Below, in pieces: positions 13,901 through 60,287 of a stretch of 64,000 bases of DNA (position 1 is the stretch's first letter; every line of letters starts with the position of its first letter). Location of the stretch: assembly GCA_965112155.1 (NCBI GenBank), contig OZ218099.1. The stretch is one strand, 5' to 3'. Source of the DNA: Podarcis liolepis. Taxonomy: Eukaryota. A program made the position numbers and the translations under genes. A model generated the notes under the pieces. That model saw only the letters and a list, made by a program, of their open reading frames with translations. It made no database searches and had not been told where the DNA came from.

Positions 13901-14152
13901 TATAAAACCTCTAATGCTCCTCTGTGGAAAGTTCTACACCCACATACAGTGTCTGAGGTTGCAATCTTGGACACATGAGGCACTGCTGATGCAGTGGAAA
14001 TTACTTCTATGTAGTCATGCATTTGATTGCACTCCACAATGCGTAACTCCTTTTTCTTTTAAAAAAGGAAGTCAGATTCTTTGTTAAGAGCAGATAGGAT
14101 TTTATCATTTATTTTGTCATACTAATGTGTATGCAGAGGTATTCCATTATTC

Positions 14153-14154
<2 letters not shown>

Positions 14155-14196
<42 letters not shown>
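14155..14196. repeat. (TAA)14 microsatellite, probably the tail of the adjacent L2
   Basis: Seen directly. Confidence 0.9.
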
Positions 14197-14198
<2 letters not shown>

Positions 14199-14199
<1 letters not shown>

Positions 14200-14458
14200 A
14201 GTCATACCTCGGGTTGAATGTGCTTCAGGTTGAGCGCTTTCAAGTTGCCCTCCGCGGAAACCCGGAAGTAATGGAGCGTGTTACTTCCTGGTTTCGTTTC
14301 TCGTGCATGCGCAGATGCTCAAAATGATGTCACATGCATGCACGGAAATGGCAAAACGTGACCTGCGCACGCGCAGACGTGCCGTCACATCTTACGTTCT
14401 GTTCAGGTTGCGAACAGCTCTCCAGAATGGATCCCGTTCGTATCCTGAGGTACCACTG
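14199..14458. mobile_element. Tc1/mariner MITE, 260 bp, with non-identical ends
   Basis: TA|cagtcatacctcggg ... cctgaggtaccactg|TA. Confidence 0.85.
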
Positions 14459-14460
14459 TA

Positions 14461-14684
14461 TTATTATTTATACCCTGCCCATCTGGCTGAGTTTCCCCAG
14501 CCACTCTGGGAGGCTCCCAACCGAGTGTTAAAAACAATACAGCATTAAATATTAAAAACTTCCCTAAACAGGGTTGCCTTCAGATGTCTTTTAAAAATAG
14601 AATAGCTGCTTATTTCCTTGACATCTGATGGGAGGGCATTCCACAGGGTGGGCATCACTGCCGAGAAGGCCTTCTGTCTGGTTC
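14461..14684 (-). mobile_element. L2-clade LINE 3' end
   Basis: Minus-strand RTRQKAFSAVMPTLWNALPSDVKEISSYSIFKRHLKATLFREVF (L2 C-terminal motif), plus a 3' UTR ending gggtataaataataa. Confidence 0.85.
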
Positions 14685-15534: not shown

Positions 15535-15579
15535 TGGATAGGTTAATGCACAACCATTGCTGGATGTGATTCTTTCGCC

Positions 15580-16758
15580 ATGTGGCTCCTGAGACTAAAG
15601 CACCATTTGTCGGTCAATATCTGGACCTTGCTGCTTCTGGGGAGTGCTTGGCTGCCATTGGAAGAAGGCACTCCCAAGTCCAACTCTCCCTTTAGGACTT
15701 TCCAGGTCACCGACTGGAGTTTGACACACCTGGTGGTCCACAACAAAACTGGGGAGGTGTATGTGGGTGCTGTCAACCGGATCTATAAGCTTGCAGACGA
15801 TCTGACACTGATGCGCACTCATGTCACAGGGCCCGTGGATGACAATGAGAAGTGCTACCCACCGCCTAGTGTGCAGTCTTGTCCACATGGGCTAGTCAGC
15901 ACCAACAATGTCAACAAGTTGCTGCTGGTGGATTATTCTGGGAATCGACTGATAGCCTGTGGCAGTGCTTCTCAGGGCATTTGCCAGTTTCTGCGCTTGG
16001 ACGACCTTTTCAAGTTGGGTGAGCCCCATCATCGCAAGGAGCACTACCTCTCCAGTGTCAATGAGTCAGGAACTATGTCAGGTGTCATCATTGAAGTCCC
16101 GAATGGGCAAAACAAGCTCTTCATAGGAACACCCATTGATGGCAAGTCTGAGTACTTCCCTACCCTGTCCAGCCGTAAACTGATGGCCAGTGAAGAGAAT
16201 GCAGAGATGTTTGGCTTTGTTTATCAGGATGAGTTTGTCTCATCCCAGCTCAAGATTCCATCAGATACACTGTCCAAGTTCCCCACATTTGATATCTACT
16301 ACATCTATAGCTTCAGCAGTGAGCAGTTTGTCTATTACCTGACCTTGCAACTAGACACCCAGCTTACCTCGCCTGACTCCACTGGGGAGCAGTTTTTCAC
16401 CTCCAAGGTCGTTCGGCTGTGTGTAGATGATCCCAAGTTCTACTCATATGTGGAATTCCCCATTGGTTGTATTCGTGATGGCATTGAATATCGCCTGATT
16501 CAGGACGCTTACCTAAGTAAGCCCGGAAAGGCACTGGCCAAGCAGTTGGGCATCTCAGAGCAGGAGGATATCCTCTTCACCATCTTCTCTCAGGGCCAGA
16601 AGAACAGGGTGAAGCCACCAAAGGAATCTGTCCTTTGCCTCTTCACACTGAAGAAGATCAAAGACAAGATCAAGGAGCGCATCCAGTCTTGCTATCGTGG
16701 GGAGGGGAAGCTTTCTCTGCCTTGGCTTTTGAACAAGGAGTTGGGATGCATAAACTCA
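15580..16758 (+). CDS. PLXNA1: Plexin A1, first coding exon (signal peptide + N-terminal part of Sema domain, 393 codons)
   Basis: Translation matches plexin-A1 as I recall it ([103 protein letters not shown]). Kozak context gccATG. Phase-0 donor TCA|GTAAGT at 16758/16759; the ORF-track residues beyond this are intron read-through. Confidence 0.96.
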
Positions 16759-19527
16759 GTAAGTCCTCCTCCTCCTTCTTCTACTTTGTCATTTCTCCTT
16801 TTCCTTTCTGCTCTGATAAATCCAAAGCATCAGCTGAGATACCTGTGCTGTCCTTGAGTGCGCAGCTGTAGATGTTGCTTAAAGATCTGGGATTTGTTTC
16901 AATTAGCATGTGACCATTCTATTCTCAGCTACAGTGTTTTGGTGTTGGGAGTTTTAAGCCCCTGTGCAGATCCTAAGGATATTATGAGGATAATTATTGG
17001 GTGTTGAGAAGTTCCGGCCTCTGGAATGACTTCTCCCAATCTTCAGTTATCCAAATAAAGTTTGTTATGCTGGAGGAATGGGGACTGCATTGATTTTGGA
17101 ATGTGTTTTAGAGATTCTTTGCACAGAAATTCTTGCCAAGACAGTTTTTCGGAAGGATTGAATTGAGAAGAAAGGCAATAAGTAGGAGCACTAACCATCT
17201 AACAGACATGCTGATGTTCCATTTATTCTAACCTGAGTTTACTTTCCACTGTTACCATCATGACAAGTACTGGAATGAATTAGGAAAAAAGCAGATGTCC
17301 ATGTACAGGAGATATGTCCTGCTGGAAATACAGACCCAAGTAACTGTTAGAGATACTGATGTGATGACAATTGCAGATGATTTGAAGTGTTATTCAAGTT
17401 GCAACATGGTGCCCTCTCAGCACCACATAATGATACGGCAGGAATATTAGCCAGCCAGGATGATGTTCCGACTCTACCTGGGACTCCTGTTTTCTTCTTT
17501 TATCCTCCATCTGATTCCAAATCGGGATACTCAAAATCCTTACCTTGGGATCCTCTGATTCTGTAGTTTAGGGAGAGTGTGAGAACAGGACAGCTGTACA
17601 GATAGCAGCTTCGTACTGGCAGTGAGAGGACTCTCCAAATTCATAGGTGTATATGAAACACAACTGGAGTGTCAGGTTTTGAGGCCAATTAGAAGTGAAC
17701 TCTTGCCCTGGGGGATATGGGAGCGAGCCAGAGTTATGAGTCTGGATATGTTCTTTCTCAACAGAGGGAAAGTTGCCTGCCTATCCTGAGGGAAGCATTT
17801 CCCATAGGCTGTTGCTATGGCAAACAGAGGAGCTTTATTGCCCTGTTCCATTGTGTTAAGTCTTTGGCAAGGCAGGGTAAGAAGCCTGCTTTGTTTTATG
17901 AGCCATAGCTGGGTTCCTTTTCAGACAATATCAGATATAACTGGGAGGCTATTTCAGCTACTTGCAGTGAGGATAGGAGAGTAATGTGTAAAAGATCTTT
18001 CAAAATGGGAGTGGAATGGGCAACTTTAAGATTTCTAGGACATATCACAAGTTGTAGAAAATTGGCATAGTTACGTCACTTAAAACTCTCAGCTAAACGC
18101 AAGGAGATATACATAGTGATTGTGGCAGAATCTGAGCTTGGACATCAGATGCCATAGGTCCACTCCCCAGACCCATATAGTCAAGTGTGCTTTGGACTTT
18201 GGGCTGATTCTTAATGGATCCATTTAGCCTACTGACCCTTCTTCTCCAAATTGTAATGGTCTGCTTAAATTAAATTTTGTAAATGAATTCAGCTAAAGAC
18301 CTGGCCCACTCCAAATGCATTTCTAATGGCTTACAAGAAGCACAATGTTGAGTGTGTGTGTGTGTGCGCACACGTAGGTTTGGAGCCTCCCTAAACAATA
18401 GCTGTATGTGTCAATGGTAGTGGACCTCGAGATTTAAAATTTTACTTTAGAAACTTCTTTCTCTGTTCTCCAATCAGCAGGCTCTCATTGTAATTAAATC
18501 AAAACCATACAAAGCCATAAAACATAATACATCAGCAGGGCCGATAAACATATCAGATTTTAGATCTTATGTTCCTATAGGTGCATGTATGGTATTGGGA
18601 ATCATAAATCATTGGATGTGTAATTCCTGTGGCTCATGTATTCCTAGATGCTGCTGCACGTATTTAAAGTCAATAGGAATTACATTTCCCATGATTCCTG
18701 TCAGCCACAGAATTCTGGTTGTGGGGATTACATTGACAGCCAGTGGATGGAGTGGTAGTACACTGGGCTCATACGTGGGTGCCTAGGGCAGAATTGGTAT
18801 GGTATTGTAGGCAGTTGTGATTCTGGTAGCAGCTCTGATAGGAACAGCTGAGATCAGAGATACAAAGCATGAAATAAGAGCTTGTACTGTGCTTCCTTAT
18901 GCCAATGAACCCATGTTCATGAGAAATACACTCCATTGTAAGGCTCAGTGTAGTATACATAGAACCTCGCCCCCTCTGGTCCTCAGAACATAGTTGCGTG
19001 GCAGTGTAGCTGAGAGATAGCATGTGGTCCATGTTCAGCCAGTGAGTTTCATAGCTGAGTGAGGAATTTGAATACACATCTCCATGGCTCTGTTCCACCT
19101 CACAATATGATAAATAATGATTTACAGCTGCTGTGGAGTAATGGAGATAAAGGGAGAGGGGCATTGGAGGTCTGTTTTGGCAAATTAGACTGGAACCATC
19201 CTTGGCCATGGTTTGGACACCTTACTCTTCTTCCCTTCCTCCTTCTCTTTTTAGGACAGATTCCCCAAAGGATGAGTGGAAACCCTCTGGCATGGTGTCA
19301 GGGTCCTGTAGGGCCAGGCCTGAAAGTGGTCAGATGTGAGTCCAAGTCTGGCTGAAATCAAGGTCTGAAGCAACAGTCAGAGATCATAGGGGACAGAATC
19401 AAGTACGCCACCGAGGTTGGGCAGACCATAGCATTCCAAAGGGCAGCTGGAAGTGAGTCTGCTTTGCTTAGATTGTTACTGCAGGCTTGGTTCCTCAGTT
19501 TCTGTAAAGCCACCCAGGCTTTAGGTA

Positions 19528-34625: not shown

Positions 34626-34808
34626 CCCCTGCAAATTGATGACAATTTCTGTGGTCAGGATTTTAACCAGCCATTGGGTGGAACAGTCACCATTGAAGGT
34701 GTGCCGCTCTTTGTGGACAAGGAAGATGGCATGACATCAGTGGCAGCGTATGACTACCGTGGGCACACCGTGGTCTTTGCTGGGACACGGAGAGGCAGGA
34801 TAAAAAAG
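34626..34808 (+). CDS. PLXNA1: Plexin A1, second coding exon (183 nt, Sema domain: [61 protein letters not shown])
   Basis: Polypyrimidine tract + CACAG acceptor ending 34625; donor AAG|GTAGGG at 34808/34809. Continues in frame from ...GCINS to PLQIDD as in plexin-A1. Confidence 0.96.
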
Positions 34809-58194: not shown

Positions 58195-58574
58195 CAGTGG
58201 CGGAGCATATGCCCACGCTGCCCAGGGTGGGCACGCTTCCAAGGGGGGCGTGGCCTGGAGGGTGCCCTCCCAGGCATGGGTAGCCGCTCAGGTGCATGGA
58301 GTGGCACTCGCGCCCTGCAGCCGGGGGCGGAGCAAGCCGCCCATGGCGGACATTCAGCGCACTGTCCGCCTGCGACTGCCAAGCCTCCCCCAGCTGTCAA
58401 AACAAAGGGGGGAGGGGGGAATGCAGCCAGCAAAGTGGCATAGCTCCCCCCTTCCCCCGATGGCTCGGGACAGGCTTGGGAGTCGCAGGTGGGCGACATG
58501 CCAAATGTCACCCCCCCTCAGCGAAGACACCCAGAGCGATCCGCCCCCACTGCACCCCCCTTCCTCTGCCCCTG
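58195..58574. mobile_element. Non-autonomous hAT element, 380 bp, GC-rich
   Basis: Ends cagtggcgga / tctgcccctg; perfect 8-bp TSD acactacc (58187-58194 and 58575-58582). Confidence 0.88.
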
Positions 58575-59265
58575 ACACTACCTCAACTTTCTACCTTTTC
58601 ATCCCGTCTTCTGAGGAATTGGAGGACAAGTAGTTTTGCTTTCTCTTGCAAAGGAAACTGTATTACCAGCACAGTTTAGAGGAATGACGTGTTGGTCAGG
58701 AGGGTGCTTTTCTTCCTGGCTGCAGGATGCTGAGCTGCTCCTAACCTGTTGCTTTCTGTGAACAGGGCTGAATGGAAGTTGGCATAGCCTACCTCTTTCA
58801 GATTCCCATTGTATGTAGGTCCCGGAAGGCTCAAGCTTTTTTCTTTAGCATTTACCGTCCAGTCACTTTCTTAATAGGAATGAATCCAACCAGGTGTTCC
58901 TGAAGTTGCTAGGTTTGTCTGAATCAGCAGCTTCCTTTTAAAAATGGAGCTAATAATATAAAATATTCTTGGCCACAGAGGTCAGTTTAGGACAGGCTCT
59001 GAACAGAGTATTGAAAAGTCTTGTTTTCCCTTTCACCTTTCATTCGCTTCCTCCATCCCTTAACTTTGTTCTAATTAAAACCATGCTGAATATGCCTTTT
59101 TCTTCTACCTCTTCTGCCGACTTGAAGTCTCTTTGTTGGGGAAGAGCTCCAGGCATTATCTATTCCAACATGTGCAGCAGCAGGGACAGGCCTAGGCATT
59201 AGGAAGAGTTTGGAGGATTAACACTGATCTTGCTGCTAATTCTCCATTGTCCACCGTCTCTAGAG

Positions 59266-59764
59266 CAGTGTTTCCCAAGCGTTTCTGGGCAACGGCACAC
59301 CTGTTTACCGGGAAAAAATCTCGCGGCACACCACCATTAAAGCCCCGCCCCGTGACATCAGCGCGCAGCGTCACGCCGGGAGGGACGCACAAAAGTTAAA
59401 GTTTTTTCCCTTCCCCTTGCCGGGGTGGGAGGAGGCAGCAGAGCGAGGGATTGAGGGACGGCAGCAGCGGCTGTTGTGGCGGTGGGGGCGATAGCGGGCG
59501 GAGGAGGAGCCGTCGCCGGGAGTTGCTGCTGCTGCTGTTGCTGCTGCTGCCCGGACATGCCGGCCTCCTCCTCCTCCGCTGTCTCGCGCTCCTCCCTTTT
59601 GCGCGCGCTGCCCCGCCGCTCGGCACCAGCACCGCGGAGCCGCCCCCGGCTCGACGCGGATCCTCGCCGCCGCCGCCTCTCGCCGCCTGACTCCCTCCCA
59701 CGGCACACCAGCCGGTGTCTCACGGCACACTAGTGTGCCGCGGAACACCGGTTGGGAAACACTG
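59266..59764. mobile_element. Young non-autonomous hAT (Charlie-like) element, 499 bp, with CpG-island-like cargo
   Basis: 13-bp perfect TIR cagtgtttcccaa / ttgggaaacactg; perfect 8-bp TSD ctctagag (59258-59265, 59765-59772); subterminal cggcacac repeats. Confidence 0.93.
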
Positions 59765-60287
59765 CTCTAGAGCTGTTTCAGAGGGCAAGTTAAAGCAAGG
59801 TTTACCTAGTCCTGTCATATAAGAAGGGCGCTTGGAGCAATGGGACTCTCCCCTCCCTTCCCCAGCAATAAATGGAAATATTTGTAGATGGAGAAAAACA
59901 CATTAGCCATGTGGTATATATTATGCGTGTATCCTCCAAGGATCCAGAAGGTAGAAACCAAAACCCCCATAAGAATTTGCTTCATTTTGCCCTCCTCTGA
60001 CCAGCACCAGTTCATCTTGCATGATCATTCTGGGCTCTGAAGGCCTTGTTTATACTACAGGTTCAGTGACCTACACTGCTGTTTCTCAACCTATTGTGTG
60101 TGACCCAGAAACAATCCAGCTTTCAAGGCATCTCTTATCGTACAGAGGCTGTTCACCTTTGGCCTTTCAAAAAACAAACTCTTCCAAATGGCCCCTCTCC
60201 CAGTCAGAGGGCAGAAGGACAAAGTTCACTAGGGCTGATCCAGCCCAAGAGTTGTTTTGGAGTTTGTGTGTGAATGTAAAAAGTCCT

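Follow-up and report, generated by a model that had tools for sequence, protein, structure and literature searches.

The locus examined here raises the question of whether a short, CpG-rich hAT transposon in PLXNA1 of Podarcis liolepis carries a fragment of another host gene and, if so, from which gene and by what route the fragment was acquired. The window, meaning the whole 64,000-nucleotide stretch of DNA that was analyzed (contig OZ218099.1 of assembly GCA_965112155.1), had been described in an earlier note as holding a young hAT that had captured the first exon of a gene the note could not name. In the reading that we consider very probable, the element is one copy of a young, high-copy, nonautonomous hAT carrying exon 1 of RANBP9 and a CpG island from upstream of TCF20, likely acquired through template switches made while DNA was being replicated or a gap was being repaired. 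Its transposase probably came from another source.

Structure and insertion site of the element in PLXNA1

The element spans 59266 to 59764 (499 bp; both end positions are exact). Its 13-bp terminal inverted repeats (TIRs), at 59266 to 59278 on the plus strand and 59752 to 59764 on the minus strand, pair CAGTGTTTCCCAA with TTGGGAAACACTG at 13 of 13 positions, or 15 of 16 when extended to 16 bp. The same 8-bp target site duplication (TSD), CTCTAGAG, with TA at positions 4 and 5, stands on both sides (59258 to 59265 and 59765 to 59772), so the perfect TIRs and 8-bp TSD described in the earlier note are as stated. The note's hand count of about 50 CpGs is close to the 54 counted in the 499 bp (GC, 0.675), and its description of the flanks as CpG depleted held, the observed/expected CpG ratio being 0.95 in the element versus 0.21 in the rest of the window. 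Elsewhere in the window, a CpG-rich patch lies at 14001 to 14500 (21 CpG; observed/expected, 1.02) and a GC-rich patch at 58250 to 58500 (GC, 0.68). The empty orthologous site proposed as a check is present in one contig of another organism, which joins 59257 to 59765 with a single copy of the target sequence and skips 507 bp, the length of the element plus one TSD.

GGCACAC repeats lie near both ends. Two are found in the left subterminal region (59279 to 59341, plus strand), a stretch common to the family that occurs as two main left-end types, and the right subterminal region (59699 to 59751, plus strand) combines such repeats with a 48-bp imperfect palindrome (59708 to 59755). Inward from the left end, a left-arm segment at 59342 to 59421 (plus strand) contains what we take to be GC-box and CRE-like motifs; this segment is dispensable, because it is missing from some mobile sister elements, such as L115. 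The adjoining 59422 to 59459 (plus strand) is the leftover of an older GC-rich block that has longer contexts in sisters L152 and L243, and two motif searches for its donor gave 343 and 140 matches, too many for a donor to be singled out. On the right, a GC-rich segment at 59664 to 59698 (plus strand) is common to most sisters and has a 9-bp deletion in the window copy. Located donors cover 59460 to 59663, and about one-third of the interior (59342 to 59459 and 59664 to 59698) is without a located donor.

The host gene lies on the plus strand. A large Sema-coding exon, in a stop-to-stop frame at 15547 to 16854, matches Plexin-A1 (E value, 1.7e-213), and the next Sema-coding exon, at approximately 34635 to 34808 (plus strand), is the last one located before the element. 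The element is downstream of both exons, and its RANBP9 piece is antisense to PLXNA1. The earlier note had placed the insertion in a PLXNA1 intron; the identity of the host gene stands, and the intronic position is one that we infer because the Sema domain is unfinished after the last located exon. Two sets of candidate frames, 21 and 63 in number and reaching as far as 40 kb beyond the window, did not yield the following PLXNA1 exon.

RANBP9 as the source of the captured frame

DNA searches with the interior, as the note had proposed, and with the whole element led only to family copies among the matches scored, namely 40 of 1,253 first-look candidates in the genome for the interior, at 95 to 100%, and 40 of 2,108 for the whole element. 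The donor was instead reached by comparing the interiors of elements that share the same TIRs, another check put forward in the note, since sisters hold other interiors and the longer ones led to RANBP9. In the 1,265-bp form, the minus-strand frame reads on to a GT splice donor, and the best match to the peptide of element L121 is Podarcis lilfordi RANBP9 (E value, 3.7e-64). Longer sisters carry the complete RANBP9 exon 1 and 28 nt of intron 1.

A motif from the 3' part of exon 1 has 23 sites in the genome, 21 of them between family ends (18 with identical TSDs). The other two are a TIR-less RANBP9 locus and a paralogue, presumably RANBP10. At the TIR-less locus (G000:C8:60.208 Mb), the remaining RANBP9 exons are arranged in their proper order across 28 kb. 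A 90-kb stretch here contains a single 13-bp family TIR pair, which lies in a later intron at a distance of 21 kb. The single-copy, genic, TIR-less source that the note had named as its test therefore exists, as RANBP9 exon 1. Three RANBP9 blocks spanning 4.8 kb are collinear with this locus, and long carriers differ from it by 2.2% substitutions (218 of 9,907 aligned bases). Since the RANBP9 N terminus is also present in agamid, skink, gecko, and human proteins, the gene, and not the element, is the source. The family element near RANBP9 has different arms. A sister element in a later RANBP9 intron (G000:C8:60186934-60187811; L185:6934-7811) has an ATG, a hydrophobic, signal-peptide-like stretch, and a GT donor, and L271:644-1530 is a further element with the same three features.

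In the window copy, the start of exon 1 lies at 59506 to 59583 on the minus strand (donor, G000:C8 60208913-60208996) and includes 25 nt 5' of the ATG, the ATG itself (59558 to 59556), and codons for MSG-polyQ-LPATAP. A second piece of the exon, rich in Pro/Ala/Thr codons, follows at 59460 to 59505 on the minus strand (donor, about 60208762-60208804), the two being separated by a 108-nt in-frame deletion and joined at a 4-nt microhomology. The ATG, the peptide as written, and the mixture of CAG and CAA codons in the earlier note are all correct. The peptide follows RANBP9, less 36 deleted codons, as far as the alanine run, and its VPQSLALLPPPTPA portion comes from the left arm of the element. 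Similarly, of what the note read as a GC-rich 5' untranslated region, 25 nt belong to RANBP9 and the remainder derives from the TCF20-upstream donor in the opposite sense. The plus-strand poly-Leu frame mentioned as an alternative results from reading the glutamine codons in antisense; it lacks a Met and is no feature of the donor.

The capture of a first exon by a hAT, as the note had proposed, is supported, with RANBP9 as the gene it could not name. Its picture of an exon moved once into PLXNA1 is not, as the start-codon motif of RANBP9 has 1,109 sites genome-wide (reversed-pattern control, 0). The capture of RANBP9 happened once, upstream in the history of the family, and the PLXNA1 copy is a late, shrunken derivative. 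Among short copies, 36 of 41 retain the ATG and an open frame, which is expected from youth alone. The only protein match of the window frame, a UniRef Kunitz-domain model from Podarcis muralis (P0001), was rejected as a donor, as it holds the captured peptide. Twenty of its residues are identical to the captured frame, and three residues of the identical stretch are read from upstream of the ATG; either an element copy was wrongly included in the gene model or the peptide is a case of exonization.

A second donor upstream of TCF20

At 59583/59584, the cargo switches from RANBP9 to a second donor at a shared GTC, so that two cargo pieces lie back to back. The second donor is a CpG island upstream of TCF20, represented in the window copy by 59584 to 59619 (plus strand; donor, G000:C11 about 32265280-32265245) and 59620 to 59663 (plus strand; donor, about 32265163-32265120). 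Between these pieces, a deletion of about 80 nt removed the CCAAT-containing part. A motif from the sequence adjoining the switch has 18 sites, of which 17 have a right TIR and 1, at G000:C11:32.265 Mb, has no family sequence. The island at this last site matches sister L115 over 619 bp at 98% and sister L218 over a further 1,027 bp at 98%, and its substitutions amount to 1.9% versus element copies. No family TIR or element was found in 170 kb around it.

The island is CpG rich and contains a CCAAT motif; 85 bp beyond the captured sequence it has a GT that resembles a splice donor. The main coding exon of TCF20 (1,905 codons) is 8.3 kb downstream on the same strand, and its protein matches Lacerta agilis TCF20 at 98%. 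We infer that the island is the promoter or first exon of TCF20. Downstream of the gene, at G000:C11:32.17-32.21 Mb (L288 to L291), are cytochrome P450-like exons in at least two copies, presumably CYP2D.

A young, high-copy hAT family

A 30-base motif from the right end, allowing at most 2 mismatches, has 3,870 matches in the genome, and the reversed-pattern control has 0. Among the closest distinct copies, 33 of 36 have an identical TSD. Mean divergence from the majority sequence is 0.6% among the 35 closest copies (one truncated copy was dropped), a value that is a lower bound on the age of the family, as it comes from the best matches only. When elements were taken in order of position, all 30 had TIRs and a TSD (at most 1 mismatch); 13 carried the RANBP9 exon and TCF20 pieces, 3 carried the RANBP9 upstream block, and 14 had cargo from none of the three located donors. 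A RANBP9 exon piece in 13 of 30 would scale to about 1,700 copies, versus the 1,109 motif sites.

TA stands at TSD positions 4 and 5 in 143 of 147 distinct elements, which we take to be the signature of the Buster (Charlie) group. The family shows the features of the hAT superfamily, namely an 8-bp TSD, short TIRs (13 to 16 bp, within the 10 to 25 bp usual for hATs), and GGCACAC subterminal repeats. An 8-bp TSD is stated for the superfamily, within which Ac and Buster differ in target selection (PMC3942097).

Sisters with the same ends and other interiors range from 454 to 2,421 bp. A size series from about 1.6 kb to 0.5 kb is related by deletions, in which the 499-bp form is a deletion derivative of the 739-bp form, itself shorter than the 1,265-bp form. 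The left end of the window copy is of a different type from that of its 739-bp parent. Arms and cargo were exchanged between family members. An apparent inversion in three elements proved to be an orientation artifact, and two loose read ends considered as donors were sister subfamilies (274 and 387 motif matches). Fold-back inverted copies of arm sequence occur inside L145 (1,036 bp) and L243 (1,446 bp), and L145 has two types of cargo one after the other, one of them from RANBP9/TCF20.

An autonomous partner was sought in two ways. No family end was found near 30 of 62 hAT-domain matches (1.5-kb flanks; 150 of 315 candidates scored), and none was found in 20 regions of 9 kb. Other hATs were seen in the same genome. 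A 4.8-kb element at L099:3645-8445 (G000:C7, about 56.3 Mb) has an 8-bp TSD, an 841-codon hAT-domain frame, and CAGTGGCGTAGCG-type ends, and is a candidate autonomous copy of the other, CAGTGGCGTAGCG family, judging from its frame and ends. A different small element starting with CAGTGGCGTAGCG is nested in several sisters (L130, L155, and L158). The hATs at L100:2854-6288 and L106:3774-6592 have TIRs, TSDs, and frames of 691 and 589 codons, with unrelated ends.

FH and other cargo in sister elements

Sister elements carry fragments of further genes. FH cargo of about 1 kb, comprising a CCAAT region, exon 1, and about 0.8 kb of intron 1, is present in four elements. The FH motif has 5 sites, 4 with TIR and TSD and a fifth that is TIR-less and has fumarase exons downstream; substitutions between this donor and the elements amount to 4.3%. 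In one form, a 31-bp RANBP9-upstream piece lies between FH and TCF20 cargo. At the FH locus, a tRNA-Glu gene (L199:9583-9659) is situated about 200 bp outside the captured stretch. A link between tRNA genes and donors was considered and rejected, with one tRNA-Glu beside FH and none in four 10-kb stretches at RANBP9 and TCF20.

One sister contains the start of a protein kinase A (PKA) type II regulatory subunit (PF02197; E value, 5e-14), first spotted by eye and then confirmed by the domain match, and another contains a transglutaminase-like internal exon (E value, 6e-9), so that cargo is not limited to first exons. Donors were not located for these two pieces or for the cargo with the signal-peptide-like stretch. 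The three donors located, RANBP9, the TCF20 island, and FH, are all CpG-rich 5' regions. Across 22 nonredundant cargo blocks (14.9 kb), GC is 0.60 and the observed/expected CpG ratio is 0.64 to 1.13 in 20 blocks and lower in 2, a composition that is no clean test of bias because the set was partly gathered via GC-rich motifs. A Pfam search of the 150 longest of 235 interior-block frames found no transposase and no host domain. The interior of L254 has four telomere-type repeats (CCCTAA) at a cargo junction.

Route of capture

Two readings would do without DNA-level capture of gene sequence. The GC-rich interior could be the transposon's own promoter or 5' region, with a gene-like frame arising by chance, as the left-arm GC-box and CRE-like motifs have no located donor and the parent element was not found. 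However, RANBP9 and the region upstream of TCF20 each provide a single TIR-less locus that the interior matches, and the RANBP9 N terminus is older than the family. This refutes the proposal for 59460 to 59663, leaving 59342 to 59459 and 59664 to 59698 as the only parts to which it can apply, and as an account of the interior we regard it as extremely improbable. We give equally little credence to passage of the cargo through RNA, as a retrocopy inserted into an element. That the located cargo consists of 5' ends of genes could be read in its favor, but the 28 nt of RANBP9 intron 1, the FH intron 1 sequence, and the upstream DNA carried by the elements refute it for RANBP9 and FH, and no exon-exon junction is present in the cargo. 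Because intron and upstream sequence came along, capture took place at the DNA level. Transposition was repeated after capture, because the TSDs are distinct.

In the preferred order of events, an element would first have taken up RANBP9 exon 1, about 250 bp of upstream sequence, and two further upstream blocks. A switch at the shared GTC would next have put the right half of a TCF20-carrying sister in place of the RANBP9 upstream part, giving the 1.26-kb form. Deletions would then have produced the 0.74-kb and later the 0.5-kb form, with the 0.5-kb form amplifying most. The template switches would have occurred at 1- to 4-nt microhomologies, and the element in which they began had probably inserted close to the donor. 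Cargo junctions have 1 to 4 shared bases, a number that chance may also give.

Two observations hint that capture took place beside an insertion. The last bases of the RANBP9 upstream block are precisely a TA-type 8-mer, ACTTAAGT (C8:60213264-60213271 in the genome), followed by 23 nt of the inner left end; the genome has the 8-mer once at that boundary, whereas in the element copy a left-TIR remnant comes after it. This inner remnant would equally be explained if an element had inserted into cargo captured earlier. At FH, an element whose left arm is that of the FH carriers is located 15.9 kb away from the FH block, with strand and side both matching, an arrangement with a chance of about 7e-4 (calculated post hoc, with gene preference ignored). 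Against a start near the donor, the FH-adjacent element has no diagnostic variant in common with two FH carriers, from which it is as distant as 16 other arms are; the 170 kb around TCF20 hold no family element, and the one near RANBP9 has different arms.

The same observations bear on two other routes. The left end of one insertion and the right end of a neighboring one could have been mobilized together with the host DNA between them, deletions following later, as proposed for Pack-CACTA elements in two accounts (PMC6379663, PMC8903248). The 8-mer boundary with its 23 nt of left end, the collinearity of the RANBP9 blocks over 4.8 kb, and the collinearity of the FH blocks with the neighboring element's arm all speak for this model. 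Against it, pieces of cargo that come from different chromosomes meet at microhomologies and have no element ends between them (RANBP9-TCF20 and FH-31 bp-TCF20), which means that exchange between elements is needed in any case, and leftover single ends are absent at the three donors; we consider it unlikely. Capture in trans, by an excision gap or stalled fork that copies open, GC-rich chromatin anywhere, would make the FH neighbor a coincidence. It accords with the 170 kb around TCF20 in which no element lies, with the lack of shared variants at FH, and with the FoSTeST and gap-filling models described in the animal survey (PMC8277862), but not with the low chance of the FH neighbor or with the target-like 8-mer at the RANBP9 boundary, and we hold it as a real though minority possibility. 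On balance, we take the main route to be template switching combined with exchange between elements, and we consider it somewhat more likely than not that the process began near the donor.

Methylation and transcription of family copies

Singleton transitions in four subfamilies (65 sequences) number 114 at CpG versus 19 at other C/G positions, a rate per site 12.5-fold above that of other C/G positions (P = 3e-37). This excess makes germ line methylation probable for most copies, which would then not act as protected CpG islands. Most family copies are probably inert, as is the PLXNA1 copy itself. In one RNA run, 990 reads fell on the element, in both orientations, with none extending into the flanks of the window copy; this shows that family copies are transcribed somewhere and is not a measure of promoter activity. 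In RNA run X24, 16 reads with 15 starts join the right end (59764) back to the left end (59258), reflecting either a tandem copy elsewhere or a circular form.

Comparison with known gene-capturing elements

Tan et al. (2021) report 370 Pack-TIRs in 100 animal genomes, only four of them multicopy; in their description, when TIR transposons of animals capture genes, the result is mostly single-copy and does not depend on transposition (PMC8277862). By biological criteria, the lizard family is a multicopy Pack-TIR, with TIR-less parents at least 90% identical, capture at the DNA level, distinct TSDs, and an empty site. As a two-donor mosaic with deletions, it falls outside the pipeline filter of that survey (interior of 100 to 5,000 bp; length ratio of 80 to 120% to one parent), and filters such as a unique best hit and that length ratio would tend to miss such a family. 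The likeness is close to Pack-hAT-N8_XT, described there as a nonautonomous hAT with the CAPSL 5' untranslated region, a TIR-less parent at >90% identity, and distinct TSDs. Pack-hAT-N8_XT is reported in three copies, whereas here one cargo motif has 1,109 sites and there are about 3,900 ends. Unlike the cases described from the survey, single lizard elements hold cargo from several chromosomes.

Bat Helitrons provide a parallel in copy number. HelibatN3, which carries the NUBPL promoter, first exon, and partial intron, is described as showing sequential capture at the DNA level with a bias to promoters and first exons, and Helitrons of this type have about a thousand copies of one cargo, as in the lizard family (PMC4224331). 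In contrast, bat Helitrons are rolling-circle elements without TIRs or 8-bp TSDs and use another enzyme and capture route; the TIRs and 8-bp TSD rule out Helitron identity for the lizard elements. Rice Pack-MULEs and other Pack-TYPE elements of plants, Pack-hAT and Pack-CACTA among them, are alike in their preference for GC-rich cargo, mosaics of gene fragments, and sharp local GC step, but Pack-MULEs are plant elements with long TIRs and 8- to 11-bp TSDs, and the largest plant clusters quoted in these sources have >100 copies (PMC5861414, PMC8903248, PMC6379663). For plant Pack elements, capture has been linked to neighboring insertions or repair (PMC6379663, PMC8903248). The hobo_AC hAT families of Anolis, as described by Novick et al., likewise take up extraneous DNA and swap ends between elements, but their filler is other transposons and not gene starts, the likeness being one of description and not of sequence (PMC3014272). 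In openly licensed PMC papers and bioRxiv, there was no report of a lacertid Pack-hAT or of such high-copy capture by a vertebrate hAT.

Implications

With about 1,100 copies of one gene start and several donors, the lizard family represents the opposite regime to the mostly single-copy capture described in animals. Its intermediates are <3% diverged, which makes the manner of cargo acquisition, next to an insertion or in trans, testable in one genome, and the same genome lets the preference for GC-rich 5' regions be tested as a capture bias versus an amplification bias. At RANBP9, TCF20, and FH, the copies will also interfere with the mapping of reads, the calling of methylation, and the building of gene models. 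A bolder and doubtful reading is that the lacertid family acts like plant Pack-MULEs at full scale, harvesting CpG-island promoters and first exons of many genes near its insertions, stacking them by exchange, and scattering thousands of cassettes. Some cassettes would retain an intact promoter, ATG, and splice donor, and a few would start or splice into new host transcripts. If this is true, the family would offer, in a vertebrate and at a young age, a series of extant intermediates from which the successive steps of gene capture can be placed in order.
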